Shown: piece by piece, positions 4,438 to 60,523 of the stretch
Numbering within the stretch: the stretch's first letter is position 1
How the letters are laid out: the number at the start of each line of letters is the position of its first letter
DNA from: Okamejei kenojei
Lineage: Eukaryota
Reading direction: 5' to 3'
DNA: 64,000 bases
Assembly: GCA_035221665.1 (NCBI GenBank)
Contig: CM069136.1
Span: forward strand, 40,982,001 to 41,046,000
Notes under the pieces: model-generated
What the model was told of the DNA's origin: nothing
The model's input: only the letters and a program-made list of their open reading frames with translations
Database searches by the model: none
Program-made: the position numbers and the translations under genes

Positions 4438-4620
4438 CATCTGTTGAAATGAACGGACTGAAAAAATCACTGCCTTGGACCTCCAGAAAATTTCTATCGC
4501 CCACTCTCTAGGAAAACTGAAACAGCCACAAGCTTATAAGCAGGAGTAAAATACATTATTGGCGAAGAGATGGAAATAAATTATCAAACAGAGAAGATAT
4601 CAGAATTGTCTAGTTACTAA

Positions 4621-4751
4621 AGGGCCTGTCCTACTTAAGCGACTTTTTCGGCGACAGCCTGTCGTAGACATTGTCGTAGGGGGCCGGTTTCTCGACGTCA
4701 CGCCACGACAGTGACTGTCGCCGAAAAAGTCACCTAAGTGGGACAGGCCCT
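4621..4751. mobile_element. Short non-autonomous TIR element (Harbinger-like MITE, TWA flanks)
   Basis: ~34-bp imperfect TIR agggcctgtcctacttaagcgactttttcggcgacag / ctgtcgccgaaaaagtcacctaagtgggacaggccct; flanks TAA and TTA. Confidence 0.85.
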
Positions 4752-4906
4752 TTAATAGGCCAACAAATGACACTCTATATTTAACACCACTTTTACGAAG
4801 CACCAAGCAGAGCAAGGAAAGCATAAAATGGCATAAAATGCTGCAATTCTCCATTCCCATTTGTACATGATTTATCTGCCACTGGCCTCCTGCGCTGTTA
4901 TACTGA

Positions 4907-5355
4907 AGGGGCTGTCCCACTTCTGGCGAGTTTGCGTATTTTTCAACGTTGAAAAATGCCCGCGAGTAAAAAAAGGTCGCCATGGAAAGAAATCTATACC
5001 TTTTTTACTCGTAGGTTTAGTCAAAGTAGTTTGTAGTAGGTCGTAGTAGGTCGGCATGTTAGTCGTAGGTAATTGAGGATAGTCAAAGGTAATCGAAGGT
5101 AGTCATAGATAGTCTTTATCATAGTCGAAGGGAGGTCGAAGGGAGGTCGAAGGAAATCAAAGGAGGTCGTCTTCACTCTCTACTATTTGGTGTCCAATTT
5201 TCCCAAAGTTAGTCGTAGGTAGTCGAAGCTGGTCTTCAACATAGTCGAAGGAGGTCTTCTAAGTAGTCGAAGGAGACCTTCAACATGTCATTTTTTCAAA
5301 CTCTCCTAAACTCTTCTAATCTCGCGAATTAGGTCGCCGCAGTGGGACAGGCCCA
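4907..5355. mobile_element. Non-autonomous TIR element (Harbinger-like) with internal 9-12-bp tandem repeats
   Basis: TIR aggggctgtcccact / agtgggacaggccca; flanks TGA and TAA; internal tagtcg(t/a)agg repeats; related to 31092-31495. Confidence 0.85.
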
Positions 5356-5781
5356 TAAATTTGAGGAACATCAACTCATCTTCCACCTGGACAAGTTACA
5401 GTGTTCCAGACAAGATGTGGAACGCCACAACTTCAGGCAACTTCCTCTGTCTGTATAAAACTAATCATTTCAATCTATGGCATTGGAAAGTTTTCATCCC
5501 TTTATTAACATATCCTGACCTATTGGACATGTCCATCAGTCCTACATTTTCCAATTTTTACATTCTTTCATTTGTACTCATTTGATGCATTATCTTGAAA
5601 GCACATACATTGTATATTCCATTCATTTGAACAAAGATGCGACAGTCCTAAAATGTAGAGCAAGCACCATTTCAGACAAATCCACATGCTTCTAACAAGA
5701 AGGGACAACAATGAAATGTGATTACTTTTCAATCACCTTTGTTGAACTACAACGCCACATACTTGTATTGATTGATACAAT

Positions 5782-6993
5782 ATGAAACATGGCACTGACT
5801 TGTGCATATATGCCCTAAAGGAGATTGTAAATAAATATAGAGGCAAAAACCCTTCCATTCTTATGTGCTTTATTGATGCCTCCAAAGCCTTTGATCATGT
5901 TAATCATAGAATGTTTTTTGTTAAATTGAGTCAAAGGGGGTGCCTAAATACATTGTGAGAATGCCAACCAGACTATGCAAATAAAATGGGGCAATAGGTC
6001 TCAGCCCAATTTGGGGTTAACAATGGTGTCAGACAAGGGGGGATTTTATTCCCAGTCCTTTTTAATCTTTATATTGATGAATTGTCCAATCAATTGAAAG
6101 CCTGTAATACTGGGTGCATGATTGATAATACTTTAGTGAACCATATTATGTATGCAGCTGATCTTGTGGTCTTTAGTCCATCTAGCGCTGGTCTCCAGCC
6201 GCTCCTTACTACAAGTTCTGTGTATGGTGTGGAACATTATTAAATATAATGCTTGTAAGAGAGAGTGCTGTTACGATCTGTAGAATCAAAGAGGATAAAT
6301 GTCTAAAATGTCCTGGTTTTAAATTGTTTGGTAATAATCTTAGTGTCTGTAATAAGGTAAAATACCGTGAGCGTTTTATTACAGAACAAATGACAGATGA
6401 TGAGGATATTTATAGGCAATGACGTATGCTGTATGTACAGGCGAATATTCTCTTGTGTAAGTTTGGTGCGTGTACAGATGTGGTGAAGATGTTGCTGTTC
6501 AGAACATATTGTACACCACTCTATACTGCGCACCTGTGGTCGAACTACAGAAAGACAAGTTTGCAGAGACTAAAGGTGGACCTATAATAAAGCCATGAGA
6601 ACGCTGCTAAGGAAACCTAGATGGTGTAGTGCTAGTAACGTGTTTGTGGCTGCAGGAGCCAGTACTTTAGAAGATATCCTAAGAAATCATATGTATAAAT
6701 TAATTTGCAGGATAAATTACTCTAAAAATATAATTATTGTGGCCTTGTCAAACATAAGATTTAGCACTACACGCTACGAATCCCAGTTGTGGAGACACTG
6801 GTATCGCTGTCTCGTTGTTGGACATTGATCATTCTTTTTTATTCTGGATTTTAAATCATGTATTGTGTTTTTATTAAATATATAATTTATGATGCTTTTA
6901 TAAGTGATATACTAAGATTTTATATGTATTTTATGGTGTTTTTATATGCAATGTATTTTTATGTAATGTCTGGATCTTGAGTCTGAAATAAAG

Positions 6994-7026
<33 letters not shown>

Positions 7027-7029
7027 CAA
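5782..7029 (+). mobile_element. 5'-truncated non-LTR retrotransposon (RTEX-like) with (ATT)n tail
   Basis: Frameshifted RT motifs (FIDASKAFD, GVRQGG, MYAAD), C-terminal YCTPLYTAHLW; aataaa plus (att)n tail; 23-bp target duplication atacttg(t/c)attgattgatacaat at 5759-5781 and 7030-7052. Confidence 0.85.
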
Positions 7030-7460
7030 ATACTTGCATTGATTGATACAATTGATTTATTGAGGCTAAATAGATCATTTAGAGGGCATTCTGGAATTTT
7101 TCCCCCAACAAGTTCAACTGAGTGCAGTTTTACAGAAGCTAAATGAGCAGCTTTGAAAATTCTGTCCATCACTTCATATCTATATCTGATGCAATTCCAA
7201 TTTGTCTTTTGTCCTTCAACTTAAATAAAACAACACAACCACTGTATGCGTCCTGTCAAAGATCATGTTGCAATCCCAAGATCCAACTCTTTGCCACCAT
7301 TCATTAATTGTAGGTTACCGGTGGCTTAAATATAAAGTGCTTACACCCGTGATGAGATGATATTTTTGACTCAATCCTCTTATTTCCCTACACCACTCCA
7401 ACTTGTGCATATGACAATCAACTTGAAGGCTAACATCGTACTTTGATTCATTAGCCCCTG

Positions 7461-7790
7461 TAACCCACAGCAACTTTGGAATTTCTGTGCATGCATGTAT
7501 AAATATAACATTCTAAAAGTAGCATGACTAGGCAATAAGCTGCATTCTTATGATGAACACCTCCTTGAGCGAAACACTTACATTGCAGGCTTGCCATTTA
7601 ATGATCTACTGGGTCCCGTGAGGAGCAAGGTGCATTTCCCCTTGGATTATTATGATTGGGAATAGCTGCAAGACCATCAGCTAATTTACAGGACTTTCTC
7701 ATATATTCGTTTTTAAATACACTTTCCACAAATTTATTTTCTAAAATCACCTCAAGGTTTATGGTAAGCTTAAGGTTGACCGCTCCCAGT
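7461..7790 (+). repeat. Local duplicated segment, copy 2 (paired with 2132-2470)
   Basis: Colinear diverged match to 2132-2470. Confidence 0.9.
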
Positions 7791-8874
7791 GTGCTGGGAT
7801 TAGTTTATGACTCGATCCTCTTATTTCTCCACACCACTCTGACAATGAACGAACAAGGTTCCCCATCAAACATTACATTCCATTCATCACCATCTTGGCT
7901 ATCCTCTTCACTTTTGCAGCTGCAGTTTCAGCTTTCTGACACACGCTATGGATTTTTCGCTCCAAACCCTTTTGTGACACCATCTCCCTCCTTCAACTCA
8001 GTCCTGATAAAACTTCTGAGCATCCCCTTCTTTGTCTCACTGTATTATTCTTTTCCTGACAACTTTGTGGTCCAAGAGGATGCTTAAATCTGTAGCTACC
8101 TGGCCCGCTGATTTACTCCAGCACTTTTGTGTCTTATTTTGTAAAAACAGAATCTGCAGCTCCTGTGTCTCCTTGTGGCCATACATGATTATTCACTAGG
8201 TGTGTCAGGAAGAACATGTTTCTCAGACTTCGCTACACATTAGACCGATGCTGGCATTTGACAACGGGTCGGCAATTCTGGAATGGGCAAACAATGGATA
8301 GAATACAGTTTTGCTAAATTCAAGGGTGAATTCCTGGTGAGAGATGCAAGAGGAGAACAGGGAATGACTTGACCATAGATGGGAAAGAGGTCCCCCTTGG
8401 AACAGAGTCTGACAGGCAGCATTTAGCGATCATTATTTGTATCAATAATCCGTCCTTACCATGTCCTTACCCGCATTTACATTCCATTGAAGTATGCTCA
8501 TGTCAAAATAAATTTATACTGAAGGGAAATAACACGACGGGCTTACTTCCTCACTCATTATCTGACACCATATGAGAAGAAAGATCGCTTTCACAAGAGA
8601 TGAGAGTTTCCCAGTTCTTGTGGCAGTGTATCCCGGAAAGAGGTGAGAAAGCGGGGGGAGGGGATTGAGAATGCTTTTCTGGCTTTTTGTCGATAATAGC
8701 TTTGGACAATCAAACCAGTGAAGCTGCGCTTTATCGTTTTCTATGTGTAATCAATTATTTCTGAACTTGGAAATGGTGGGAACATTTGGCTAGAAATCTT
8801 GGTGACACCACAAGAAAAACTAACTAACATTAAATATGAATAAATGATAATTTTTTTTAATATTTAAGACTTAC

Positions 8875-8970
8875 CAATATTAATCTCATCATCAGTCTCT
8901 GCATCGCCAATGCACTCAAACTGGAAATCCTGCAATGATTGTGAAAACCTCTGAACAGCTGCAGATAAAT
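8875..8970 (-). CDS. ARHGAP42: Coding exon 2 (BAR domain) of a GRAF-family Rho GTPase-activating protein, best match ARHGAP42
   Basis: Minus strand reads polypyrimidine-cag|AT TTA TCT GCA...ATT AAT ATT G|gtaagt; 96 nt, phase 1-1. Translates (N)[31 protein letters not shown](A), nearly identical to the ARHGAP42 segment as I recall it ([33 protein letters not shown]) and closer to it than to OPHN1 or ARHGAP26. Confidence 0.92.
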
Positions 8971-9306
8971 CTGAAAAACAAATACAAAAATACTAGACTT
9001 AAGATACTTTTCTAACACCTAAATTGGTCCTTTTTTAAAAAAAGTGAATAATGAGTCAAAGCTCAGCAAACATTGTTCATTATGATGCAAATATTTTAAA
9101 TGGGCAGGAATCTCATAGCACAATTCAATTATTCTACTGCAAAAATAATGTTTTGTCCTTTCAAGTCAAGAATCCTTGCTGTGAGTAACAACTGATATCA
9201 GCATTCAATCACTTTGAGGCTTCAGTCACATTCCTTGTGCTGGCTTTCCGGTTATAACAGTGCGGACTAAAACAAATCCCCTCCTGCTGCTATTTTGTGT
9301 TACTAA

Positions 9307-9795
9307 AGGGCCTGTCCTACCAGCATCCAACTCCATGCGGTGAGCGCGACCAAACCGGCAGCGGGGGCCGCGCGGAGGTGGGGTGAGTGGCGCAACGCGG
9401 CGGGAAGTGAGGCGAACTTGGAGCGAAGTCTGAAAGGTAAGTTCGCCAGGACTGAGAGGGACACACAGTGAGGGGCACAGAGTCACACACAGAGAGGGCC
9501 ATGGAGCCACACACAGAGAGGGTCACGGAGGCACCTACTGAGAGGGTCACGGAGGCACAACGTCGAAGCGGTGTGTAATGCGCCGAGGCAACTGCGAGTC
9601 GACAAGCCGTTGCCGCGCGGAATTTTTGAACATGGTCAGTTTTTCGGAGCCCCGCGCGATGTCGGGACGAACTCCGCACAATTCCGCACGGCTCCGGCGA
9701 TCGAAGTGGGACCGGCCCCGGGACGCCGGACAGCTCAAGCGACCACGTTAGGTCGCGCTCATTGCATGGAGTTGCATGCTGGTGGGACAGGCCCT
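9307..9795. mobile_element. Non-autonomous TIR element (Harbinger-like), CpG-rich; same family as 37619-38185
   Basis: TIR agggcctgtcctaccagcat / atgctggtgggacaggccct; TAA on both flanks; internal ~20-bp tandem repeats at 9450-9560. Confidence 0.9.
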
Positions 9796-10715
9796 TAAGA
9801 AGTTATTAGCTTAAAATCTTTTGTGTACATTCACTGGTGAAATGACACGGTAAAATCAATGGGAGAGTAGTTTTTTTTTTTTTTAATTGCTTTACTTCCT
9901 TAGTTACTAATTGCTAGTTCTTTGATAAGGAAATATGCATATGAAATGGAATTGCTTGTATTGCAAAATGCAGTCAGTAATTTCGATTTGGCACCGTCAA
10001 GGCCTTCAAAGAGAGACAGGATGTTCTGCAATTTCTCAAGTCCAGTTTTTGTTTTCAGATTTATCACGTAATCCATCTGAGGAGGAATGAAGGTGCCAGA
10101 TTTTGCTAACAGCAACTAAACAAACCTGTGTATGGCAAACACCTGTCAGGCAACGACCCAAAAAGCATAATCCCTCCCAGAACATCTGGCGATGATGTTA
10201 ATAGGACAAGCATTGATATTCCTTCGTAGCTAATCACATTGAACAATCAACAGTCATCAACAATCTGGTGACCTTGACCCATGCAAGACCACATTTTTCC
10301 AGAGATAGTCCAAGCCCAAGGGGACCAAAACCTGGTCTTGTGTTGAGTGACCCCAATATAACATTTGCTCCATGGGCTGGAAATTATGTTCAGTGATGGG
10401 CAATCCATGTTCAGTGTCGACATCACAAAATGGTCGCACATTTCATGGTTCTTGCATTCATACTTGACATATGGAAATGGTTTCAACAGTCACAGCAAAG
10501 TCATACAGGGCTCCAGGACTAACTAACACATGACCTGCTATGCAATGGGTGGTGTCCAGGCCAGCCTTAGCTACTTGTACTGAAAAAAACAACAGGTTCC
10601 TCCTGTCAAATTGTCCACTGGTTCTTCATGTTTCATTCAAGTGCCTAAAACAAGTTTTTTTTTTGATGCTACAAATTCTTTAAAGTATTTATATGCAAAT
10701 TAACATCTGAAAACA

Positions 10716-11785
10716 AATTCAGATTCAGATTCAGATTCCTTTATTGTCATTCAGACCTTTCGGTCTGAACGAAATTTGTTACCTTGCAGTCATAACATGT
10801 AATAAAATTAAAACAAAACACACAATAAACACATAATTAACATCCACCACAGTGAGTTCACCAAGCACCTCCTCACTGTGGTGGAAGGCAAAAGTCTTAA
10901 AGTCTTTGTCAATTTCCCCTACTTGTTCCCCCTCTGTACTGAGGCAATCCAGGCCTTCGATGTCATCGTCCACCAGGCCCGCGGGCCGAGCCTCCGAAGC
11001 CAGGCCGCCACCGCCGCCGCCGCCGGAACACCACCACAGCCCCCAGCCAGGATCGACCACGGGAACGCTGGAGAGCCGCTGGAGCGCCGAAGCCCCGAAG
11101 CCGGGCCGCTGCTGGAGCACCTGCTGGAGAGCCGCCGGAGCGCCGCAGCTGGGCCGCTGCTGGAACACCCGCTGGAGAGCCACTGGAGAGCCGCCGGAGC
11201 GCCAATGCCGGGCCGCTGCTGGAACACCCGCCGGAGCCGCCGGAGCGCCAATGCCGGGCCGCTGCTGGAGCGCCGCTGGAGAGCCGCCGGAGCCGCCGGA
11301 GCGCCGAAGCCGGGCCGCTGCCAGAGTACCCGCTGGAGAGCCGCCGGAGCCGCCGGAGCGCCGAAGCCGGGCCGCTGCTGGAGCGCCGCTGGAGAGCCGC
11401 CGGAGCGCCAATGCCGGGCCGCTGCTGGAGCACCGCTGGAGCAACTGCTGGAGCGCCGAAGCCCCGAAGCCCCGAAGCCGGGCCGCCGCCGCCGCCGCTG
11501 GAACACCGGAGCTCTGAACGCTCGCCACAGCTCCGAGGCCACCAGCTCCGCCATTAGGCCTCAGCACAGACGGAGACGGTGACGGGGGACACGACAAGAA
11601 AAGGTCGCATCCCCCGAAGGGAGAGACTAAAACCTTGTTTCTCCCACCCTCCCCCCCCCCCCCCCCACACACAAACACAGCCTAATAAACCAAAATTCTA
11701 ACTAAAAACAGACACAAAAGGACCAAAAAAAAGAAAAAAACAGACGGGACTGCAGGTGAGCCGCAGCTGCCACGCAGCGCCGCCA
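10716..11785 (-). mobile_element. Non-coding retroposon-like element with (AATCTG)n tail and internal GC-rich minisatellite
   Basis: Minus strand ends aataaaggaatctgaatctgaatctgaa (LINE-type microsatellite tail); no RT motifs; GC-rich repeats inside. Confidence 0.65.
11066..11512. repeat. GC-rich composite minisatellite built from 9-12-bp modules
   Basis: Reiterated gctggagagccgccggagcgccgaagccgggccgct variants; module lengths are mostly multiples of 3. Confidence 0.9.
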
Positions 11786-11965
11786 AATCTAAACTGACTG
11801 CTTAGTCCCTCTGAGTTCACGAGAGAAGCTGACTTTGAACCAGATCCAGCATGGAATTGCTGCATTGGACTTCACTCAGAAATAAGCTTGGAGCCCAAGT
11901 CTCAGAAGCAGCCACAAAGAGCTCACCATAGCCAGGAACATTCCATAATGGTGAAGCAGAAGTTA

Positions 11966-12670
11966 TGGGTCTGCCCCACTTAGGCGATTTTTCAGGCGAC
12001 TGCCGGCAACTGTTAAGTCGTAAAATGTCACAGAAAAGCCGGCGACTGGAACGGCGACAAACATACACACATCACTTCCTTCACCAGCTCGTTATGCAGA
12101 CGGAGGACAGGGCAAGTGGGGGGAGCACTATCTGAGTGAAATTCACATGGTGCAAAGCCACTGTGATACAGACACACACCACGATGAACAGGCCGGTTGA
12201 CGCTGTAATTAAGACGGTGAAAGTACAGTGTACGGGAATGGTCACATAAGTATTTTAAAAGAGGTGGGAGAGAAGGAGTGAAGACAACTTTCAAGAAGCC
12301 AGAGATACACGGCTGTGAAGCTCAGCGGATATTAACATTACAGTCGGTTATCCTTGGTTCTGAAAACTACTGTTTACGTTTTGTTTCCCCAATGAGCCTA
12401 TGGAATCACCGGTCAGCATCGGCGACAACCTCCTGGTAACCCACTACCACTGCACAATGGCACGAGAATTCTCGCTACTCTCCATGGCGGCTTCATTCTG
12501 GTCGCCACTAATTTTTCCACATGTTGAAAAATTAGTGGCGACCAGATTGAAGCCGTGACTTGTTCCGAGAATGTGGGAACTCCTTACGCCCATGAAGGCG
12601 ACTCCCCGGCAACCACCCGCGAACATGTGGCAATCGCAAGTGGGACATAATCGCAAGTGGGACAGGCCCA
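11966..12670. mobile_element. Non-autonomous TIR element (Harbinger-like), related to 4621-4751
   Basis: TIR tgggtctgccccactt / aagtgggacaggccca; flanks TTA and TAA. Confidence 0.85.
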
Positions 12671-14338
12671 TAACTCTCGGGATGTGGGGTCATTTTGGAG
12701 AACACCAGAAATATTATTACAATCTTCCCCCAAATCCAGCCCATCATAACCCTATTGTTTGATCCAAATCTGCCTCAAAAGTCATTGAACCTGGTTTCTT
12801 AAACTGTACCTGCAACATAATCTTAAAATGGGACCATTCTGAAGAGTGACACAGAATGGAGTGAAAGCCATCAGGCCTGCTCACAACACTCTTGTAAAAG
12901 TATTTTAGATGAATGTTAGCTTTAAACAACACTGATGGCAAAGCTTGAGAAGAAAAATTTGACTTGCAGAAAAAGATTAGTTGTTTTTTGACTAAAATCT
13001 TTGGGGCACAGCAGTGAATGTCAAGTAGAATCCAGCTTTGTTACAAGTACATCGGTGGGGCAGAAGCATCTCCTTTGAAGCCTGACTGTGCCACACTTCC
13101 GATTACTTTTAAAATGTCATTCTCCACCTTCAACATTTTGTAAAGTTTGCCCCAATAACTGAACGAGGTTATCAAAATCAATTCACAGAAAATGAAATAA
13201 AGCATTAGAATGGCTTTAATAAATTAAGTAAAAGAGAAAAAAATAAAATATATATATTTTAAATTTCCAATAAGAAAAGGCTTAGGAAAATAGACTACAC
13301 TTAAAAAGTTAATTTTCAGTGCCAGTGTTATAGCCCTGTCTCACGGTGCGAGTTCACCCATGAGTGACCCCGAGTGAAAGACTCGTGGTTGTGTACGAGA
13401 CTCCACGTTTATGATCAAGAGTTTAACCGAGTTCCCACGGTTATGACTAAGTTTGCCGTTTACTTCTAATTTCTGCGATGTCCCGAGTTACCAAGTTCCT
13501 CTCCCGAGTTACTCTTGAGCCAACCGTGAATGAAAGCCTGTTTTAAGTATCAAATAGAGGAGCTGGACAGCACCTCATACATTAAGTATATTCTGATTCA
13601 GTATTGAAAGTTATTCAATTTCAGAACTTAAAAAAACTAGGCAGGATCTCGGCCCCGTACTCATTTGTGCAGCAAGGAGGCGGTGGCGGTGAAGCAACAG
13701 TGTTAAAGAAGACAGCTCCATCCTGCGGCTTTGAGTTAAAGATAGAATTCAGCGCGGCCGCGTCTATTGATATGACCTACAAAGGGAAAATGCGCACCGT
13801 CCAGTGCCAGAGTTAGGCTGGGATCATTCTCTGCTCTCATCTCTCTCTTTCTGTGTGTGCGTTAGCAGGGGAAGAGTGGTCTACCTCGCTGGGGCACAAG
13901 ACCACTGCCGCCTGCCCCTTGCAGCCATCAACTTGTTTGTTCCTTTGGTGCGCCTCATCTGCCCTGCTCCCATCCCAGCGCTGCCCCAGCTCTCTGCCCC
14001 ATTCTCTTGGAAATGTCGCTTCCGCCACTGTAACGAGGAGGGGTCCGGCTGGCTGGCTTGGTGGGTGGGTGGGTGAGCAGGGAGATGGAATGGCTACAAA
14101 CCACCGAATCCATTCTCAAAAGTCAGGCAGGGCCGTGTAGAACTCGCGTTTCTCTCTGCTTCATATACGTGGGAATTCCCTCAGTATGGTCACTCAGCGG
14201 GCAGGCAGCATCTCTGGAGAGAAGGAATGGGTGATGGGATGACGTTTTAAAATTTAAATCATGGGCAAACCATCTTGCCCCAGGCTGCTTTACATTATTT
14301 ATTGTGTTGAGTTGTTTGTGAGGCTGGGACTTCTCTGA

Positions 14339-14575
14339 GGGTCGCCACCTTATAGTGGAGACATATGCGTGTGCCTTAGTTCCTGTAAGCTGGCCTCATG
14401 GCAGGAATGTCGAGGGGGAGGTCCCTGACAAAGCGCGGCCCAAGAAGATGACCTCAGTGGAACTGGCCGAGGATGGTGTTTGGCCGGCGGCTGAGAAGGT
14501 GGAAGAAGGCTGCAGCAGGGAGAGATTCACAACCGTGGTGGAGTCCATATCATTGGACCCGGGACTGTCAGTGAA
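14339..14575 (+). mobile_element. 5' part of an RTE/Vingi-type non-autonomous element
   Basis: gggtcgccaccttatagtgg...gagggggaggtccctgacaaagcgcggccc is homologous to the 5' end of 28691-29101. Confidence 0.65.
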
Positions 14576-14736
14576 TGTTGTTCGAAAAGTGTTACCAATC
14601 TCTTTTGTTGGAGATAATAGAATTACAGAGTCAAACAGTGCAGAACCATCCCTTCACATCCTTTTTACCCATCCGCACTAATCGCATTTGCTCAAATTAG
14701 GTCCTTATCCTTTCCCTGCCTTGTCTATTTAAATAC

Positions 14737-14935
14737 TTTAGAGAATACAGCGCGGAAACAGGCCCTTTAGCCCACCGGGTCTGTGCCGACCAACGATCCC
14801 TGCACATTAACACCATCCTACCCACACTAGGGACAACTTTTACAAGCCAATTAACCTGCAAACCTGAACATCTTTGGAGTGTGGGAGGATGCCGAAGATC
14901 TCGGAGAAAACCCACGCAGGTCACGGGGAGACATA
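14737..14935 (-). mobile_element. HE1-type V-SINE, 5'-truncated
   Basis: Reverse complement of the V-core (cctgcgtgggttttctccgagatcttcgg...ctccaaaga) plus CR1-derived tail. Confidence 0.8.
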
Positions 14936-16035
14936 CACACAAAGTCATTCACATCAACATCCTTTTTGTTTTGATGCTCGTTTATTGAGCTGATGAAACT
15001 GCAATGTTACAGTTCAATCCCAATCACTGGAAGCACAGAACACATTGTGAGTTTTCCAAACCTTGGTGTAACAAACAATGTGAAATCAAGAGGGTAATAC
15101 AGAGAGAGACTGTAATAATTCCAATCAGCACAATCTAAATCAAGACAGGATCAGCCTCTACACAGGGACTTTCCCACAGTCCGTGTCTGCCCATCACCAC
15201 CACCCCCGTGCCCCTGACGCTTTCTTGTCTACATGTGTGTCAGAGAGATGGCACCAAATGCCCTGGACTGCTGCACCTGTACTGCTGCACCTTTCAACTG
15301 GGATGCCCAACTGTTCCCGGATTTGAGGAAGGGCTCCAACAGAATGGACGAGGAGGGGAGTCAGGTTAAAGAGGGCGGATTTGTCTGTTCTGAGCAGTCC
15401 CTGGGCTTCAGTCAAGGGTCAGTGTGTGGGGCAGTGCCCTGGAGTTTACATCCTTTAGACATCCACCATGGTTCCCCACTCCCCGTCCCTCTCTCAATGT
15501 GTGACGGAGAATGGCCAAGAATATCACTGATTTCGCATCCAATCCTGTAAAATGTGAAGAGTTAAGAGTGTCATATGTCAGTTTAAAGTTGCAGCTTTAC
15601 CATCTGAGATAGAGCACAAAGACGCAGCAGAAATTTGGAAACGTCATCCCGTCACCCATTCCTTCTCTCCAGAGATGCTGCCTGCCTGCTGAGTTAAAGA
15701 GTGCCCACGGTTGACTCACGAGTCACTAAGGTAAACGCACGGGCCACTACGTTATTACAACAAGTTTAAATGTTTTAATTTTTAACTTGAACATTAAATT
15801 TGACTCGTGGAAAACCTCAAACATGTTTGAATTTTTTCAAGAGTTAACAAGTTTCACGGGTACCTGCCGTTATCGCCACAAGTTGCTAAGTTGCGCGTGC
15901 GACTTCCAACGTTCCCGCTACGTTAATTGCATGTGATTACCGCGAGTGAAAACTCGGGATTACTCGTCGGTCGACTCGCACCGTGAGACAGGGGTTTAAT
16001 TTAACAATGCATGAGACAGACCGAGTCATTAAATA

Positions 16036-16171: not shown

Positions 16172-17865
16172 GAGTCGTTAAATAAGTTATTTTTCTGGTG
16201 AATTTAATTCAATGAGACAAAATGTGATAATTTAAAACACCTGGATGCCATATTGAAATCTTGATACAAAGTCTGGCAGACCGAAATAAGTCATAGCATT
16301 AAATGTACTCATTTTGTTCCAAAAATATACCAAAACAGGGAATCTAATATTAACCACGGCATGGAAGGAAATCATAATAAATGTGGAAGTGCATTCTAAC
16401 ATCCAATGTTAGTAAAAAAGTCAATAAATCTTTAAAATGGTCAAAATACTCATGTGCCATAAAAAGACCATCCGTTGTTCAAAAACTATTTAATGCAAGT
16501 GTGTGGTTGAAATACATTTAATCTGAATTAATATATATAACACAATGCAAAATAGAAACAAGAGGGCTTTGTCATTTATTAGAATTACAATACTACAATT
16601 ACTAGTTTTTGATCCATAAAACCAATCATACATTACACAATTTTTACTTGAGCACATACAAAATTCTCTATAAGATGAAATCATCGGCAGAGCATATTTT
16701 TGGGGGCTTCCTGAAATGATTGGTCAAAGTGCTCAATAACAAGGTTAAATATATTTAAAATGAAACTTCATAATTGTATTTTTAATAATTTATATATTTT
16801 TAAAAACCAAGAAACTTAAATTATATTTTAATTCCTACAGTCCCCCAAATGACCCTTGGACATTTTTGCAACATTTCTCATAGTAGTGCCCCACAAGTTA
16901 AACTGAGGGAGATCCAAGGCAACACTGAATGCAGGCAACACTGAATGCAGGCAACCCTGCCATCAAAACAGGAATAAACATAATTTGAAACAAACATATT
17001 GTTCACTCTTGAAAGTCATGCATAAATATTGAAGGTTTTTTATTAAATACAAGAGGACCAATATTTTTTAGACAATTTAAAAAAAAAACCGATATTTTAG
17101 GATGATGAAGTATTTTAAATAGGTCTTGCACTACATACCCAACCTACTGTCGTGACTAGACATAACCTAAAGCAATTTCCCATGAATATTCAAAATATCT
17201 CTTCATACGTACCAATCTGCTGATATTTACATTAATTGTCCATACTTATTCTCTTTGTTATACTCAAGTAATTTTCCCACGCATGTGTTTTTAGTTAGCA
17301 TTAAAAAAAAGAAAATCAAATATTAAAATCCCTATGGAACAGAAAGCTTTCAACAGAATCTGAAGATCATAAATATTTTACTTCAGCCTCTTGACAATTC
17401 TCAATGCAATAGGATCAGTCACATACTGCACAACTTTCAGAAGTCTAGCATAAAACGTATTATAATTCATCTCGAGGAAACTGTTCTGCTTAAACTGAAA
17501 TAACCCCGCACTAAAATCATGAACTCATTGTAGTACTACATGCTGCCTTTATTCAATTTAAAACATGAACAAAATGAGTCTGAAGAAGGGTCTCAATCCA
17601 AAACGTCATCCATTCCTTCTCTCCAGAGATGCTGACCGTCCCGTTGAGTTACTCCATCATTTTGTGTCTATCATACAACAATGCAGGGTTTAACAAATCA
17701 GCTCTCCAGAGGTTCTGTAAGTATATCAGAATCAGGAACATCAGGACACAATCAGGAAAAAGAAAAAATCATTTTGGTCAAATTTGCTGCATCACATACT
17801 CTGGATGCTATTCCCGAAGAACAGATCCGGAATCTGGTTTTAATTCATTAGGTTTAACTAACTAA

Positions 17866-18135
17866 AAGCCCTGTCCCACGGGGCATTCCAAGAGCTCACC
17901 CGAGTTTGCCCTGATTCGAACTCGGAGATTTACGGTAATGGCCACTCGTCGGTACTTGGCTTACCTGCCGTTAGCGAGTCTTCCCGAGTACCTACCGTTA
18001 GCGTTACGAGCCGCTAGGAGACGTACCCAAGCTCCAACGTACCCGCTACGTTCATTCTCGTTGCTTATCACGAGTTTGATTTTTTTTAAACTAAGGAGAG
18101 CTCTTGGAATGAACTCGTACCGTGGGACAGGGCTA
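17866..18135. mobile_element. Non-autonomous TIR element (Harbinger-like), related to 13331-15996
   Basis: TIR aagccctgtcccacgg / ccgtgggacagggcta; flanks TAA and TTA. Confidence 0.85.
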
Positions 18136-18239
18136 TTAGTGAAACTGCAATTGGAGATTTGTGTTCCATTTTAATCACACTGCTATAATAAAGATATTGC
18201 AATTCTGGAAAGTGTGCAGGGAAGATTCACAAGGTTATT

Positions 18240-25065: not shown

Positions 25066-25235
25066 ATTCCTATCTCATCCCCAAAGAGGAAATCCAGTGT
25101 GGTGTCATCTCTGGTATAGAACCTATATATATTAAGATAGATTTCTTTGATGCATCTGACAAATTCTACCCCATCCACGTACTTTACATTATGGGAGATC
25201 CAGTCAATATCAGGGAACCATTTCCTTCCTATTTT

Positions 25236-29101: not shown

Positions 29102-29464
29102 ACAGATTTAGTGTGAAGTCGCACTAAAACTGTCAGTATTCAGCTGCATCAACTTAAAAAGAAACAAGGATTTCTGCATGTGCTGTGTGGAAATATCAAT
29201 GTTATCAATGGCTTTGTATTATTTTCCTGCCTTGTCTACCATAAACCAAATAATTGCACAAATTTTAATTATTCTCAATGCAATAGGTTGAAAGTATTAT
29301 CCTGTTCAGCTCGAGTTTTGTTTAAATGGCACATCAAACTGCAATTACTAATTAGTGAACTGCTTTTAATAATCGAATTGTGTGAATTAATAGAACATTG
29401 AATGAATAATTTAAAACACAATTGATTTTATTTTCTCAAAAATGTTTTTCAAAATTTAATACAG

Positions 29465-29840
29465 AAACTTTTTTTTGTTTCAGCTTTGAACTGCGCAAGG
29501 CGCTCGTCTGACATGTGTAGGATGGCTTCTACAGCATGAATCATGTTCGGCAATGCGGTGTACTCTTCTGCAGGCGTGTTTGCACTGGGCAGCCGGCTCA
29601 GGGCATCGGGGACAAACATTTCACGTCCTGGCTTCCACCGTATTTCCAGGTCGTACCGTAACAGGTGCATTCGCATGCGCTGGAGTCTGGGGCTTAATTT
29701 GTGTAGCAGCTTGGCGATGCAGGAAGAGTTTGGCAATTTAGAAGGGGTGGAGATAGTTGTTGACGACATTCTCGTTTGGGGTGTGAACACAGCACAACAT
29801 GACGCAAGGGTGAAAGCCCTACTCGAACGGGTGAAAGTAT
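29465..29840. mobile_element. Ty3/Gypsy pol scrap: two fragments in opposite orientation
   Basis: Minus strand SPRLQRMRMHLLRYDLEIRWKPGREMFVPDALSR (RNase H end); plus strand GVEIVVDDILVWG...HDARVKALLER (RT active site). Confidence 0.85.
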
Positions 29841-31091
29841 ATTAAAGGGGCACTGGCATTTATATTACATATACATCACATCTCCCCCTTTACTATAATT
29901 ACAATTCTCTCCCACCCCTGAATGAAATTAAAGTTCTCCTTGAGGAGAAATAAATGAGAACACAAACGTTAATGTATCAGGAAGGGTAATTGCAGCTATG
30001 CGGACGGGAATTACTCTACAATACATATAACCTTTACCTAAAAAAGCAGTATGCACTTTGTTGTTCCTTTGTACGGCAAATATTCTTCTGAATACATCTC
30101 AAAAGTAGTTATTGTTATAATAGTCAGACGGGAGTTGGATACAGAAGATGGAAATAAATAATTGCTGGAAGCACATATTTCATTCATTTCTAGCCCTTGT
30201 GCAAAGGCAGATATGAAAAATAACTGAACATGCATCAAAAAACACATCTCACAAATCTTCCTAAATGCCGCTTCCTCTTTTATTTATTTGGTGTGCCCAG
30301 ATGTAGTTTGGACAAGCTATTATACCCTTAATCAATTGAAAAGATCTGGAAGCATAACATTCCCATGTTCTGGTTTCTTTGACATTTATTGCAAGAATTA
30401 CATATTGGAATTGACATTAGCTTCAAGTTAGATGATGAATCTGGCACTAATAAGTGAAATACTCAATACTGAAATGGGAGACCAAAAGCAGCTTGAAGAA
30501 GGGTCTCGAGCTAAAATGTTGCCCATTCTTTCTCTCCAGAGATGCTGCCTGCCCCACTGAGTTACTCCAGCATTTTGTGACCATCTTCGACAAGAATATA
30601 GAACCACTTTATACAATACAGAGCATGCTCCGAACAGAGACAAGTGCTGCTGCTTTGCGGAAGGATTTTTTGAAGGGTGAAGATTCTAATTGAATATGTT
30701 ACTGGAATGCAAGTACTAATGTGATGTAGGGTTGGGATTGGGAGAAGGGGGATGCTGAGATTACATTGTTGAATTGGCGCCCAGCAACTACCATATCTAT
30801 CAGACTGTTTAAATATTTCTGCCTGATTTCTTTATACAGATACCACAGCCCAACTGATGGGAGAGAAAGGCTCTAATAATAGAACCTTGACATTTTGTTC
30901 TTAACTCGCTGAACAACTGCTGATGTACGTGGAAAAGATTGTGTGCTCCCCATGCATTTCTTAATGCTCATGAACAAACTGCTCATCTTTCTTTCCCTCA
31001 AAGCATATTGCAGCAAGAAAACAAAACCATTTATCACCCTTAATGGTTTTGTGTTAGGTCACCCTTAAATCACAACCATTTATCACCCTTA

Positions 31092-31495
31092 AGGGCCTGT
31101 CCCACTTTCACGAGTTATTCACAAATTCTCCCGAGTTTTCCACTTGATTCAAACTCGCAGAATGTTCGTAACGAGTCCGTAGGAACTCGTAGGAGTTCGT
31201 AGATATATCGTAGCGGCCCGCTATGCTAGCCGTTGGTACTCGTGGCATCAGGTAAGTCGGGACATTTTTTGCAGCCCAATAAAAAATGTCCACGAGTAAA
31301 AAAAATGGTCGGGATGAAAGAAATTGCAACTTTTTACTCGTAAGGAGGGCATCAAAATAGTTGTGGGAATTCGTAGACATACTCTTAGGAGTTCGTGAAC
31401 ATAGTCGTGGAAAGGCATAGGAGTTCGTAGATTAGCACGATCTTGATTTTTTTTTTTAGGTCCTTTAATTAAGTCGTGAAAGTGGGACAGGCCCT
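31092..31495. mobile_element. Non-autonomous TIR element (Harbinger-like), TTA on both sides
   Basis: TIR agggcctgtcccactttcacga / tcgtgaaagtgggacaggccct; an empty-site paralogue lies at 31025-31056. Confidence 0.92.
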
Positions 31496-31870
31496 TTAAT
31501 GTTTTTGTGTTAATTCCTCATCTTCTCTGTTTTTGAACAGATGCAAGTTGTTGCAGGTCTGATGAAAAATGTAACAGTTTGTTAATTAGTATATTCTCAG
31601 AAAGAGTTAAGACAGAAAACATAACCTGGAAATCAGTTGTCTATCCAACCTATTCCATTTTAATCGCACACCAGTTCAACTTTAAAGAATTTGTAGTCCA
31701 AGGCTCAATATAGTAAGAATGCACTATTTGCCACTTTCCAAACTCATCTCATGAAATTCAGTGAGAACTCCAGATATTCAGCTGGAAAAGCCACAATACT
31801 CACTATGAGAAATCACAAACACACAAAACTCACACAGAAGGCATCAAGAGGCAAGACACAACATATTGCA

Positions 31871-34800
31871 CATGGCTCGAAATTAGCGGTTGCCTGGGTG
31901 CCATTGAACACCCAAAGTGCCGCCGGGCAACCTAAACGCGAGTCATTTTGCCCGGCTTGGCTCGCAGATACTGGTTTATACCAAAGATAGACACAAAAAA
32001 ACTGGCGTAACTCAGCGGGTCAGGCAGCATCTCTGGAGAAAAGGAATGTGATGGTTTGTGTCAGCGACGGCTATAATGCGTGGGAAAGATGCCAAGTGTG
32101 GCGTGATGGAGGGTCGGAGCGAATGACGGGCCCCGAACAGCAACGACGTCGGCGACGGCTCCATCTCCTCCCGCCCCCCCGCCCGGCCTGATCATGACCG
32201 CTGTCTGCCACTCCGCCAACGGCGCTTTCAAAACAAACCCTCCCGCACGCCGAGGTTGGGAGGAAGGAGAGAGGGAGAGAGGGAGGGAGGGAGGGAGGGG
32301 GAGGCCCCCTTCCGCCGTCTGAAGCATCTGCACCGCTCGGCTCCGCACCTTCCTGTTGGTTGGCGGAGGAGGGGAGGTGGTGGCGAGGATCCCAACTGCC
32401 TCCCCCTTTGGCGGCGGCACTTGGCGATGGACAGCGGAAATCCCGGGGGGGGGACGTCTCCCCCTGTTTTGAGAGGTCCCCACCCGAGAGCCCTTCCCTC
32501 TTCCCTCCATGCCCGAGGGTGGCCAGAGACGTCGGGAGTCAGAGGGGAGTGGTGCTCCCAGGCCCACAGCCAGCGCAGAGAAGCAGCGCTAAACTCAGCT
32601 CAACTCTGCCTCTCCCGCCAGGTTATCCCTGCCTGGATTTACGGGAAATATGTCATCAGTCCAGGCGAGACAGGCAGAGTTGAGCTGCATTTAGCGCTGG
32701 ATTAAGCCTCCGAAGCCTCTCGCCTCTCATCTCTATCTCCCTATTCACCTTGCATTGATTCTCCTGCCACTCCCCATCAATCCTACACTGGTCCCCCAAT
32801 TCATCCTGTACTGACCACCCTTCCCATCCATCCTGCACTGCTCCACCCCTTCATCCTGCACTGCGCCCCCCCATCCATCCTGCACAGATTCCCCACATTC
32901 AACCCACTGTCATCCCCCATGCTCTCCCCTCACAATTTTACCTACTCCAACTAACACGCACGAATTCCCCTGCCTCAACCCATCCAATCCACCCCCCCCC
33001 CCCCCCCCACCATCTATCCATCCTGCACTGATTCATACCCCCCACTCCCGACCCTATTGTGCTGGAAATGTCTTCAGAGCTAACATTGACTATGTTTGAT
33101 AATGGAATGCAATCAAATATGTTTTAATTCCCAATGTTTTAATCCATAAAGATGGATGAATTAAATTGTGAACACGTTAAACATTAAAACCGCAGTGTTC
33201 GATTGTCACTGCTACCGTTGACACGTTATTTCAGAATTCATTTTAATGGCAAATCAATGCTCTTAATATGGAGTATCAGTACTGTAGTTATTTAATGAGC
33301 AACATTCACAACTATACATTGGATTTATCCAGGTTTTACTTCTACAGTCAGTCATATACATCACAAATTTGGTCAAGAGATATTTCAGTTTAAATTTTAA
33401 CGTTAATTCTGAAGTGGGAATGATGGAAAAAGCATTTATCAACACATTTTTTTTAAATTGTTGCTTACAAACTGGATATCTTAATTGCTGTTCACAACAC
33501 ATACATCTGATCTGAATGTCCGGTAGTGTGGCGTCTAGACACCTTTAAATATATTACCAAAAGAACATTTGCTGCATTTATGTCCTTTGGCCATCTCTTG
33601 TTAGTTAGTGTAATGTTTAACCTGTCAGATGGGTATAGTGAGTTTTAACAGCTTTTATCATAAAATGCCTTTAGAAAATTCCTTGCAACCTGTATATTTT
33701 GTTGTGGATAAATTACGTGGGAAGCGATGGTGTTTCTGTACCAATAGCAATAATGACCCATGCTGTGGCCATGTCATGATCATTTTTGGTCCTTCACAGA
33801 AAACATGCTCGCATCAATCTGTAGTGTGCATGGTTAAGCATATATGTTATCAAGGTCCAGGATTCCAGTATGCAGATGACACAACAGTGATGGGCCTCAT
33901 CCGGGACGACAATGAGCTTGCTTACAGGGAGGAGGTGAAACTGGTGGACTGGTGCAATACGAACAATCTGATCCTGAATGTCAAAAAAAGAAAGGACGTA
34001 ATTTTCTACTTCAGGAAAAACCGGCACAGTCACACACCACTTCATAGTAATGACAGCGATGTGGAGTTGGTCAGTAGCACTAAGATCCTGGGGGTGCAGA
34101 TCACTAACAGTCTGACCTGGTCAAATAACATCACATCAACAGTTAAGAGAGCGCAGCAGCGGTTGCGCTTTCTGCGCCGGATGAGAAGAGCTCACCTCCC
34201 CCATCCCCTCCTCACCACTTTCTACAGGGGCACCATGGAGAGTATTCTGACCAGCTGCATCTTTGTCTGGTTTGGGGACTGTAAAGCCTCTGACTGGAAG
34301 TCCGTGCAGAGAGTGCTGAGGACGACTGGAAAAATCATCTGGACTTCTCTCCCCTCAATCGGGGACATTGCGAGCAAACGTTGCTTGTCTAAGGCCAGCA
34401 GTATTATAAAGGACTCCAGGCAGCTCCATCATGGACTCTGCTGCCCTCGGGCAAAAGATATCGCAGCATAAGGAGCAGAATGTCAAGGTTTTGCAACAAC
34501 TTCTTCCCACGAGCCACCAGACTCTTGAATGCCATGTAATGGGCTGCCACCACTGTCTATTTTATCTTTTTATCCATTTTGTCTTTTTATCCATTTTATT
34601 TTTATATCCATTTTGTCCTTCTGTTTGTTATTGTGTTGCACAGAGAGCCAAATGCAACGGAATTTCGTTTGGAATTGCATATATCGTTGTATTTCTAAAT
34701 GACAATAAAGTTTGTTTGATTTGATTTTTTGATTTGATTATTGACACAGGCTGATCATACGCTGAATAATCCAACCACATTTTTGTTTGGAAGTGGAAAG

Positions 34801-35094
34801 AAATAATAAAAATTGCATTCATTGCAATGTGTAAAAAGAGTTAAGATACAGTATTATAATGTTACTGCATGTCATTGTGGTATATATCATGTCTTGATTG
34901 GTGAATATGTTAGATTGTAACTTTATTTGAAGCAGAAATAATATGTGAATGCTTCATTGAGCATAATTCCGACTGGTAACTACGCACTTCGTCCGAGCAC
35001 GCGTCATGCACGCCATCTTAAATGACCACCTAAACTGTCATTTGGCAACCTAAAAAGCTGCCAAGGTTGCCCGGCTAGTTAAGCGAGAGCCCTG
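31871..35094. mobile_element. Non-autonomous hAT-like DNA element with 5-bp TSD and nested insertions
   Basis: Ends catggctcgaaattagcggttgcc / gttaagcgagagccctg; ggcaacc/ggttgcc subterminal motifs at both ends; ttgca on both flanks (31866-31870, 35095-35099). Confidence 0.65.
33862..34740 (+). mobile_element. Rex1/Babar LINE 3' fragment
   Basis: YADDTTVMGLI...WCNTNNLILNV...KRAQQRLRFLRR...FYRGTMESIL; aataaa plus (tttga)n tail. Confidence 0.9.
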
Positions 35095-35560
35095 TTGCAG
35101 CATATCAAATTATCTTCAAGGAAAATCCCAAGAGATTCTACAGATATATTAAAAGGCGGCTGGGGAAACAATAGGTCCCCTTAAAAATCGGCATGGTGGT
35201 TTTGGTGTAGAACCACAAGAGATTGGGGACATATTAAATTAATATTTCTCATACATTTTACTGAAAAGATCATGGAAGCTAAGGAATTGAGACACTGATG
35301 TTGTGATCTCCTCAGTCATACACAAATTAACAAAGTGGAGACATTGGTGGTTTTTAAGCGAATTAAATGGTTAAATTCCCAAGGCCTGACAAAGTACATC
35401 TTCAGAACTTGTGGGAAGTTACAAAGGAAATTGATGAGACTCTTGCAGAAATATTTGCATCATCATTAGCCACAGGTGAAGTTCTGAACGACTGGAGGGT
35501 AGCTTTTGGTGCAGAATTATTTAAGGAAGACAGCAAGGACAAACAAAGGAACTACATAGA
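35095..35560 (+). mobile_element. Old CR1 ORF2 fragment
   Basis: KENPKRFYRYIK and LAEIFASSLATGEVLNDWRVA motifs. Confidence 0.8.
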
Positions 35561-37184
35561 TCCCTCGACTCGTGCAGCGCAGAAACAGGTCCTTTGGCCC
35601 AAATCGGCCCATCTCTGATTATCCCATTTGCTCAAGCCTGACTCATATCCATCAAAACCTTTCTTATCATTGTAACATCCAAGTGCATCTTAAACATTGT
35701 TCAATAAAACTATCTGCATGTATTGTAATATTAACTTTTTTTTAAGCTCAGTGTATGATTTGGTCGATAAGGTAAATCCAGTTGATCCCTTATTTAAAGC
35801 AAAACATAGGAAATACTCCGAATAGAAAAACATTTAAAGAAACCAGGAGCATGAAAATACGATTCATGAATTTCCTTCATTAAGCTGGTGTAACTCACTG
35901 GCCCAGATCTTCCATGAATAAGTGAGGCACTTAAATTCACTGGCTAGCTCCCAGTTCATCACTGAGCCTCATTTCCAAAAGTGAAATAATCGAAAATAGC
36001 CTGGTCTCTCATGGATTTCTCCACCAATGGTGAACATTGCAAACCCTTTCCTATTCTGCACCCCCACATCACCACCTCCTCCCCCCTCGCCCGTAAAAAA
36101 ATAATGCAATCTATCCATCATATATGAAAATACAAACATTTACTGACAAAAGTTCAGGAACACAAAGTAAATCCAAAACTATGCATAACTGTAGCATACA
36201 ACTGACAAATGCATTCCAATTTATAAAGCTCATAACCAAACTATAAAGATCTAAATAACTTACTATTTAGACTGTGGCCATAAAACAACATAGTCTAACT
36301 TGCAGATAAACTGAACTACCCCTTGGGATTACCGATGTTATGAAATAGCATACGAGCACAATAACAATGAGCCAGATGTTCTTGGACTCAGCCAGTGTCC
36401 TACTGTCCCACCCACCCACACTCATCTGGTCTGGATACATTAGTTCAATCTCAATGGGCATCCACATACTTAAATAAAAACAGAGAATGATGTAAATATT
36501 CAGCAGGTTGGGCAGCATCTGGAGGGAATTAGTTTCTCACCTCAAGTTCAAATGTTATCTTTGTTTCCCTTTCCAAGATATTATCTAGCCTGTTGAGTAT
36601 TTCCAGCTTTTTCTGTTCTTTTATTGACGCATTTGACTTTTCTCCCCATCCTCAAGTCAAGCACTGAGACAGAGGTGATTGGGCCTCAAGTGACAAAGTG
36701 GTGCGACCAAATTTAAAACTTTGATGGTCCTTTGCTTTTGTCAAAACCACTCATTTTAACTGATTTCAAAAGTCTCTGCATGTCAGAAAATTCGATCCAA
36801 ATCATAAAGTGAAATAAAATTCTAAAGACATTTGTAAAAAGATATTAGACCCAGATTTTTTTTTTTAAATTAATCTGCAGACCAAGAATCCTCACAGCAA
36901 TGAATGGGACATGGCATTGGATCAGAAAGACAGTTGTTCTGTGAAATATTTTAGATCTTAGGCCCTTCAGCACACTATGCTGTACATAATGCCAATATAA
37001 ATTACTCTCATCTGCTTTTCAGTCTCAGAGTATCCATATGCCCATCTAAATGCCACTATCATATCTGCCTCCATCCCCATTGCTGGCAACTCATTCCAGA
37101 CACCCGCCATACTCTATGTAAAGAAAATTGCTCTACACATCTCCTTTAAACCCTGCCCCTCTCACCTTAAAACTATGACCTCTA

Positions 37185-37380
37185 ATTTAATTTAGTTAAG
37201 CGAAGCAGCGCAGAAACAGTCACTTTGTCCCACCAAGTCCACGCCAACCAGCAATCCCCGCACACAAACTCTGTCCTACACATACTAGGGACAATTTACA
37301 ATTATAGCAAGCCAATTAACCTACAAACCCTGTACGTCTTTGGAGTGTGGGATGAAACTGAAAATCCTGGAGAAAATCTT
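37185..37380 (-). mobile_element. HE1-type V-SINE fragment
   Basis: gccaattaacctacaaaccctgtacgtctttggagtgtggga matches the other copies. Confidence 0.75.
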
Positions 37381-37434
37381 CTGGATCAGCCGACCATGGG
37401 AAACTTTATCAAACATCTTACTAAAATCCATGTA

Positions 37435-37618
37435 CAGTGGCTTGCAAAAGTTGTCATACCCCTTGAACTTTTCCGCATTTTGTCACGATACAACCACAAA
37501 TGTAAATGTATTTTATTGGGATTTTATGTGATAGACCAACACAAAGTGGTGCATAATTGTGAAGTGGAGGGAAAATGATCCATGGTTTCCAAATTTTATC
37601 ACAAATAAAAAACTGAAA
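37435..37618 (+). mobile_element. Tc1/mariner transposon terminal fragment
   Basis: TA followed by cagtggcttgcaaaagt..cataccccttgaacttttcc..gatagaccaacacaaagt, a typical fish/amphibian Tc1 long-IR end; truncated at the next TIR element. Confidence 0.85.
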
Positions 37619-38185
37619 AGGGCCTGTCCCACCAGCATGCGACTGCATGCGGCGAGCGCGACCAAACCCGGTGGCTTGAGCTGTGCGGCCTCACGAGGCC
37701 GGTCCCACTTCCAACCGCGGAGCCGTATGGTGTTGTGTGGGGCTGGTCCCGACATCATACTCACCAATCAGCTGGGCAGGAGGCGGGCCAACTGAATTTG
37801 GACGTCACACGGCGTCTGGCGGCGACGTCATCACGCAACGGCATGCCGGACGGTGACATCATCACGCAATGCCACGCGTCAGGCGTGCGCCATCAAGAAG
37901 CTGCGTACGGCGTCCAGACGCTGCGTACGGCATCATGACACTGCATACGACGTCGAGACGTTGCGCACGTCCTCGATGCGGCTGCGGGCCGACAGGCCGT
38001 TGCCGCACGGGATTTGTGAACAGTGTCAGTTTTTCAGAGCCCCGCGCGATGTCGGGACCAGCCCCGCACAACTCGATACGGCTCCGGCGATCGAAGTGGG
38101 ACCGGCCCCGCAAGGCCGTACGGCTCAAGCGACCACGTTAGGTCGTGCTCACCGCATGCAGTCGCATGCTGGAGGGACAGGCCCT
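37619..38185. mobile_element. Non-autonomous TIR element (Harbinger-like), CpG-rich
   Basis: Long imperfect TIR agggcctgtcccaccagcatgcgactgcatgcgg / ccgcatgcagtcgcatgctggagggacaggccct; right half closely matches 9575-9795. Confidence 0.9.
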
Positions 38186-38607
38186 TTAGGCAGTGTTTGT
38201 GGAATACAAGTGTTCATATTTCAGATCAAAGATCTTTTATCTCAACTGGGAGCAGAGCTTTTTCAAGGTGGAAATTTCTGGAAATGAAGCAGCAGTGAAT
38301 TCAGAAACAAATTGCAAATGGCAGAAAATCTGAAGTAGGAACAAAAGCTTTGAATTATTAACACCGTTGTTTTTTCCACCAATGTTGTCTGACTTGCTGA
38401 ATGTTTCCAGCATTTTGTTTTTATTGCAGCTTTTTTTTTTTAAGTTCTTTCTGCATTACTTTTAATGTTGAAACTGACTTTAAAATAAATTATACAAAAT
38501 CATTCATTACTTTCATTTATGTCTAGTAATTTCTTAGCGAATTTGAAAATGAAATATTTTAAAATTATATATTAATAGCCTTGTATCTAAAGATATTTTT
38601 TTAATCT

Positions 38608-60520: not shown

Positions 60521-60523
60521 GGG

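Follow-up and report, generated by a model that had tools for sequence, protein, structure and literature searches.

In a 64,000-nucleotide (nt) stretch of the Okamejei kenojei genome (assembly GCA_035221665.1, contig CM069136.1, positions 40,982,001 to 41,046,000, forward strand; this whole stretch is called the window here), elements with terminal inverted repeats (TIRs) are flanked by triplets that retain an outer T and an outer A but frequently disagree at the central base. The reading that we favor, with a probability of roughly 0.48, is that these are gene-less miniature transposons with inverted repeats (MITEs) of the PIF/Harbinger type and that a TWA overhang (W being A or T) from the donor site is joined in at insertion. 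The closest alternative, a blunt insertion that duplicates nothing, is possible but doubtful; both ratings are judgments and not computed posteriors. The evidence derives throughout from seven flank pairs and one empty site, all within this single window.

The original prediction listed seven two-ended elements, and its end motif is present at each of their left ends (4621, 4907, 9307, 11966, 13331, 17866, and 31092). A search for the 13-base core that ignored the flanks and allowed up to 3 mismatches recovered right partners ending at 4751, 5355, 9795, 12670, 15996, 18135, and 31495, and the flanking triplets are exactly those given previously: in order, TAA/TTA, TGA/TAA, TAA/TAA, TTA/TAA, TTA/TAA, TAA/TTA, and TTA/TTA. 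The ends read W-RGSCCTGTCCCAC, with TWA on each side. The 17-letter motif that includes the flank, TWAWRGSCCTGTCCCAC, is matched 17 times in the window when up to 2 mismatches are allowed (expected, 0.11; 100 shuffles gave 2 at most). The search for the core also added an eighth two-ended copy (37619 to 38185) and, together with the motif search, a ninth represented by a single end at 63175. Flanks were counted over 16 ends, omitting the left end of the copy at 37619, whose flank (AAAA) adjoins another repeat fragment and is probably not native. Outside the GGG/AGC start stand four bases that, read inwards, are T (16 of 16), A or T (15 of 16, with one G), A (16 of 16), and A or T (10 A and 6 T). 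The T-N-A flanks originally described are thus invariant at their outer bases, but the center is W in 15 of 16 cases, making the triplet TWA rather than TNA; the 10:6 split also bears out the claim that the outermost TIR base varies.

The disagreement between left and right triplets is confined to the center, as had been claimed: 5 of the 7 pairs differ there, as opposed to none of 14 outer positions (Fisher exact test, P = 0.001), and A/T swaps alone account for 4 of 7 (P = 0.006). The remaining case, TGA at 4904, is probably TAA after one transition, which leaves four true swaps; the two triplets are identical in 2 of 7 pairs, or in 3 of 7 if this transition is counted as later. Left and right TIR cores of 13 bp differ at 7 of 104 compared positions (6.7%), and at that rate the probability of at least four center changes in seven is 6e-4, rising to 0.033 even at a rate of 20%, in line with the earlier contention that random decay is inadequate. 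The terminal base is also asymmetric between left and right in three of seven elements, always by A versus T (P = 0.009 at the core rate). Beyond the triplet, the two adjoining positions are enriched for C (8 of 16 ends, P = 0.0016) and for A (11 of 16, P = 0.0028) relative to a TWA-matched background, uncorrected for the number of columns inspected, which amounts to a weak target preference of the form A-C-TWA-G-T. The flank pattern is a real, nonrandom feature of these elements.

Under the favored reading, a PIF/Harbinger-type transposase would move each element with a donor 3-base flank on both ends. The TWA target would be cut with a 3-nt stagger, and we infer that the donor overhang would pair with the target overhang and be ligated rather than trimmed and filled in. 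A TAA donor meeting a TTA target would leave a central A:A or T:T mismatch at each junction, and replication or mismatch repair would then leave up to about half of insertions with a donor triplet fixed at one junction and the target triplet at the other. Since TAA and TTA are both canonical, half of donor-target pairs would mismatch, and only at the center. The observed swap fraction of 4/7 (95% confidence interval, 0.18 to 0.90) covers the expected range of 0.25 to 0.5, with a likelihood ratio of 1.3e4 over decay alone at q = 0.25. The transposase would presumably also tolerate A or T as the first TIR base, allowing that base to drift between families and between ends.

The scheme has precedents in published work. 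Excision of mPing proceeds by a staggered cut at the target site duplication that generates 5′ overhangs, the center may be T or A, and elements with nonmatching pairs still excise (PMC4561436); the excised element bears 3-base overhangs and leaves donor TTA/TAA at Cas9 breaks (PMC11254759). Excised piggyBac bears four-base overhangs (PMC7351741), and an asymmetric piggyBac duplication at a noncanonical site was attributed to separate (mismatch) repair of the two junctions (PMC8717057). The suggestion of an undescribed joining step was therefore overstated, as the step is already known for piggyBac. PIF/Harbinger elements have target preferences that extend past the triplet (PMC2836001), a trait that the C and A enrichments noted above (8/16 and 11/16, uncorrected) resemble, as they do the C|TNA|G target of NuwaII (PMC4482050).

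Two element boundaries fit the flanks. The element can start at the variable A/T, with TWA flanks, or one base further inward at GGG/AGC, with flanks TWAW and WTWA that form mirror halves of an 8-bp palindrome and contain no direct repeat of any length. Only an empty site separates the two. Empty paralogues were sought for all eight two-ended elements by blastn searches with the separate flanks and by a scan for paired flanks, and one was recovered, for the element at 31092. This empty form (31026 to 31056, plus strand), part of a local tandem duplication, consists of a 14-bp left flank, a single TTA (31040 to 31042), and a 14-bp right flank, and is identical to the flanks of the element at 27 of 28 positions. 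A gap of 3 bases (TTA) scores best; no other match for any of the eight elements exceeds 22/28, and among 60 random flank pairs the maximum was 25/28. The filled site exceeds the empty one by the core plus 5 bp, that is, two terminal bases and one triplet. The single TTA in the empty form favors a 3-bp duplication with an element-borne terminal A/T. At 63175, the flank continues into a piece of a long interspersed element (LINE), three paralogues of which have TTA at this position, preceded by G, G, and A, with no TWAW upstream; this comparison is weak, as the triplet is followed by a loss of 2 to 5 bases and nothing is left of the site's other half.

An unrelated TIR element at 60344 to 61276 served as a control: its 6-bp duplication is perfect and it is accompanied by an empty tandem paralogue, which shows, from this one element, that duplications here can persist. 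Its 13-bp ends, CATACCTGCCAAC, are perfect, the empty paralogue lies at about 60177 to 60182, and its interior holds a palindrome resembling a short interspersed element (SINE) together with a long hairpin (61084 to 61232).

The original proposal that one triplet is brought in by the element is partly supported: its donor-overhang form gains from the rejection of decay, the fit of the empty paralogue to the boundaries, and the mPing precedent (PMC11254759, PMC4561436), whereas its Crypton-like form is not supported, for reasons given below. Slight additional support for carry-over comes from the association of terminal-base symmetry with higher TIR identity (P = 0.07), from the same-family elements at 9307 and 37619, which agree in right terminal base and differ in right triplet, and from the LINE paralogues without TWAW upstream of TTA.

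Several observations weigh against carry-over. The only empty site belongs to a matched TTA/TTA element, leaving the carry-over itself unseen, and it lies within a rearranged tandem duplication in which a TTAAT unit repeats; a 5-bp loss from an 8-bp target, by slippage or by microhomology joining, would yield the same empty-site sequence. A terminal A/T is atypical and needs a separate assumption: the first TIR base of PHIS elements is usually A or G (PMC4482050), and here it is the next base inward (G in 12 and A in 4 of 16 ends, symmetric in eight of eight elements) that resembles a normal PHIS end. Related elements differ at the terminal base (13331 and 17866 at both ends; 4621 and the left end of 11966). 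According to PMC11254759, duplications are intact where mPing inserts freely, and no transposase was found, with 0 of 48 element reading frames giving a relevant Pfam match.

The main competitor, absent from the original prediction, is insertion without duplication: the true ends would be GGG/AGC, and the element would enter bluntly in the middle of an 8-bp palindromic target, TWAW^WTWA, so that both variable positions would be host bases. This covers both anomalies with no extra step, in that all 16 ends have the fixed T and A, and bases 1 and 3 outside GGG take A or T on one side regardless of the other. The match rates are compatible with independence (P = 0.23 for two or fewer matches in seven), direct matches never exceed 3 of 7 at any boundary or duplication length, and GG/AG starts are typical of PHIS groups (PMC4482050). 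The Spy elements were initially misread in the same way and were resolved through empty sites (PMC4122938). Before the empty paralogue was taken into account, blunt insertion appeared the probable explanation; because of that paralogue it is now rated doubtful, since the site holds 3 bases and not 8 and an extra 5-bp loss would be needed. In addition, AAA|TTT occurs in one of seven intact elements, none of 16 ends fits the Spy terminus GGANNNNG, the LINE paralogues of the 63175 flank lack TWAW (a weak point), and Spy was reported from invertebrates only (PMC4122938). Should blunt insertion nevertheless apply, which is a tentative proposition, these elements would represent a vertebrate, Harbinger-related lineage inserting without duplication at the center of an 8- to 12-bp palindrome (AC-TWAW^WTWA-GT), a second such cut-and-paste group beside Spy.

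The remaining explanations are all improbable. Both triplets might be donor-borne, if an excised element with two TWA overhangs were captured at breaks by end joining, a process demonstrated for mPing at engineered breaks (PMC11254759); the empty paralogue could then be a product of precise excision instead of the original target. Preference beyond the triplet nevertheless implies target choice by a transposase, such capture often deletes 1 to 7 bp at junctions (PMC11254759) while T and A are intact at 16 of 16 ends, and the right triplet differs within one family (9795 and 38185), so we give this route little credence. Comparably slight is the chance that the triplets were identical at insertion and that template switching between inverted ends later perfected the quasi-palindrome, converting TAA/TAA to TAA/TTA. 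Each A/T swap does render the flanks perfect inverted repeats, inverted identity reaches 2 bases further out at 11966 and 17866, and local templated duplications occur at 12632 and 31026; yet two of four swapped elements retain an asymmetric terminal base beside the supposedly corrected site, and both matched elements (9307 and 31092) are among those whose ends are most alike. Still less probable is the integration by a Crypton-like tyrosine recombinase, raised in the original prediction, of a circle with a W-TWA-W junction into a TWA core. In the circle junction, a 5-bp spacer would separate two inverted arms of 13 bp, CryptonV is target specific (PMC8869645), and a recombinase-like frame is present in the window (54697 to 55179). 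However, recombinase spacers measure 6 to 8 bp, whereas the overlap here would be 3 bp, and animal CryptonA and CryptonI are described without terminal repeats (excerpts of PMC3212892). A 5-bp core would make left and right 5-mers interchangeable, whereas their first base is C or G in seven of seven left flanks and A or T in seven of seven right flanks; the recombinase-like frame, the only one in the window, is preceded at a distance of 1.5 kb by a reverse-transcriptase frame and has none of these termini close to it. Least probable is the wearing of ordinary identical TWA duplications by point mutation, which accounts for the lone TGA at 4904 but not for four center changes in seven (P = 6e-4) with 0 of 14 outer changes, in a window where the 6-bp duplication of the control is intact.

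Other target arrangements were tried and rejected. A TTAA duplication would require four-base direct repeats, found in none of seven elements at any boundary tried. An AT duplication as in ISL2EU (A|AT|T) would apply to one of seven (AT/AT at 11966, without the A...T context), and a 5-bp overlap conflicts with the differing class of the first bases of left and right 5-mers (C/G versus A/T, seven of seven each).

Although originally treated as a single family, the copies are mostly unalignable internally, and the elements are several noncoding MITE families that share one 13-bp end motif. The smallest, at 4621 to 4751 (4618 to 4754 with flanks), is 131 bp long with TIRs of about 40 bp, flanks TAA (4618 to 4620) and TTA (4752 to 4754), and symmetric terminal bases (A/T). 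The element at 4907 to 5355 (4904 to 5358 with flanks) has short TIRs, flanks TGA/TAA (likely TAA/TAA with one transition), and asymmetric terminal bases. At 11966 to 12670 (11963 to 12673), the flanks are TTA/TAA and the terminal bases symmetric (T/A); a 17-bp tandem duplication within the right TIR (12632 to 12664) looks like a template switch at the element end. The element at 13331 to 15996 (13328 to 15999) has ends of the AGCCC/ACCCC type, flanks TTA/TAA, and asymmetric terminal bases, and is enlarged by nested repeats from about 14190 to 15700. Ends of the AGCCC type recur at 17866 to 18135 (17863 to 18138), with flanks TAA/TTA and asymmetric terminal bases, and the element at 31092 to 31495 (31089 to 31498) has matched flanks, TTA/TTA, and symmetric terminal bases (A/T). 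The single surviving end of the ninth element (63162 to 63178, minus strand; terminal base 63175, flank TTA) abuts a LINE 3′ piece.

The only clear same-family pair comprises 9307 to 9795 (9304 to 9798 with flanks), with TIRs of about 48 bp and matched TAA/TAA flanks, and 37619 to 38185 (37619 to 38188 with its right flank, TTA), with 137-bp TIRs; the two are 86% identical over 211 bp. Members of this family also contain the end motif internally, as a second copy (GGCCGGTCCCAC) that sits some 76 bp from the ends (37696, 38108, and 9718) and has no TWA flanks; it may be a subterminal binding site or an older element that was captured. A repeat fragment at 37422 to 37618, resembling a Tc1/mariner end, directly adjoins the left TIR of 37619 but has no continuation beyond the right end of the element, which suggests that neighboring sequence was deleted.

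The 48 reading frames of the elements yielded only two Pfam matches, both below threshold and irrelevant. No transposase family was matched among 38 of the 55 listed open reading frames of the window or in the element frames, and an Rfam search returned no match. The elements appear to behave like PIF/Harbinger MITEs and are candidate members of that superfamily. TWA duplications are also produced with the Zator transposase, making Zator a possible alternative mobilizer.

Searches for the termini in a viral collection (0 and 4 loci in two scans), in metagenomes (78 loci), and in prokaryotic genomes (74 loci) gave no convincing two-ended element; loose partner arms with up to 2 mismatches and no TWAW flank accompanied 2 of 4 viral, 8 of 78 metagenomic, and 4 of 74 prokaryotic loci. 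The only similarities to the window, of 23 bp (locus L061) and 34 bp (locus L138, on a GC-rich bacterial contig with long open frames) were judged to be chance. A literature search, which did not extend to figures or subscription journals, found these termini in no transposon context (one hit, unrelated), the supplements of PMC4482050 included, and the families may already be catalogued in Repbase or Dfam. No natural mismatched Harbinger duplication was described in the literature searched; the excerpts of PMC4561436 cover engineered mismatches.

The repeats around the elements resemble those of a cartilaginous fish. Elsewhere in the window, the reverse-transcriptase frame (52591 to 53208; Pfam RVT_1, E = 4e-20) lies within 52037 to 55682, as does the tyrosine-recombinase-like frame (54697 to 55179; PF00589, E = 1.3e-6), which is followed by nested inverted repeats (55323 to 55682). 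This region is likely a decayed DIRS-type retroelement, and related pieces occur at about 59490 and at 62347 to 62508. An abundant short repeat forms head-to-head copies at 48799 to 48995 and 60524 to 60710, both near-perfect palindromes with arms 94 to 98% complementary. A GC-rich minisatellite at 10974 to 11532 is open in all six frames over 190 to 300 codons, probably as a by-product of composition.

Either leading reading breaks the rule that cut-and-paste elements are flanked by identical copies of the target. Joining of donor overhangs would mean that every copy preserves one base of its donor site, and carry-over would then offer natural evidence of the way Harbinger-type junctions are closed, as well as a means of tracing donor-daughter lineages; the mechanism has precedent in the overhangs of mPing and the asymmetric duplications of piggyBac. 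If nothing is duplicated, the elements would form a new Spy-like group in a vertebrate, easily misannotated as TWA-duplicating Harbingers. In both cases, tools that require matching duplications would overlook about half of these elements or assign them wrongly, and mismatch between duplications would overstate element age.

Known systems resemble these elements in different respects. Crypton and CryptonV elements could in principle bring one core sequence with them but are described with 4- to 6-bp direct repeats or none and without TIRs in the excerpts of PMC3212892 and PMC8869645, whereas the present elements have TIRs and lack both such repeats and a recombinase frame. NuwaII (C|TNA|G; PMC4482050) shares the TNA triplet and a preference for a C...G context; here, 15 of 16 ends have W at the center, just two of seven elements show the full C...G context, and mismatched pairs are not described for NuwaII in the available text. 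Spy has mirror-image AT-rich flanks that are likewise open to misreading as TIR or duplication (PMC4122938), but its target is strictly AAA^TTT, its ends are GGANNNNG, and its empty sites keep the whole motif; here, all 16 ends have G or C as their third base, and the empty paralogue is 5 bp shorter than blunt insertion predicts. The likeness to piggyBac lies in a donor overhang that pairs with a differing target overhang and leaves an asymmetric duplication after repair (PMC8717057, PMC7351741). It differs in its 4-nt TTAA, its hairpin intermediate, and the rarity of noncanonical insertions (about 2% of events), as opposed to TTAA on both sides in none of seven intact elements here and about half of the pairs affected. 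Kolobok, too, has TTAA on both sides. PIF/Harbinger elements (Tourist-like; mPing/Pong) differ in that free mPing insertions are described as intact (PMC11254759), whereas the triplets here disagree by an A/T swap in four of seven pairs, the first TIR base is A or T and often asymmetric, and no autonomous partner was seen in the window. They are similar in their short TIRs and their TWA flanks with a free A/T center (PMC4561436, PMC2836001, PMC11254759, PMC4482050), in the 3-bp net duplication at the one empty site, in the extended target preference, and in the 3-nt donor overhangs known for mPing.

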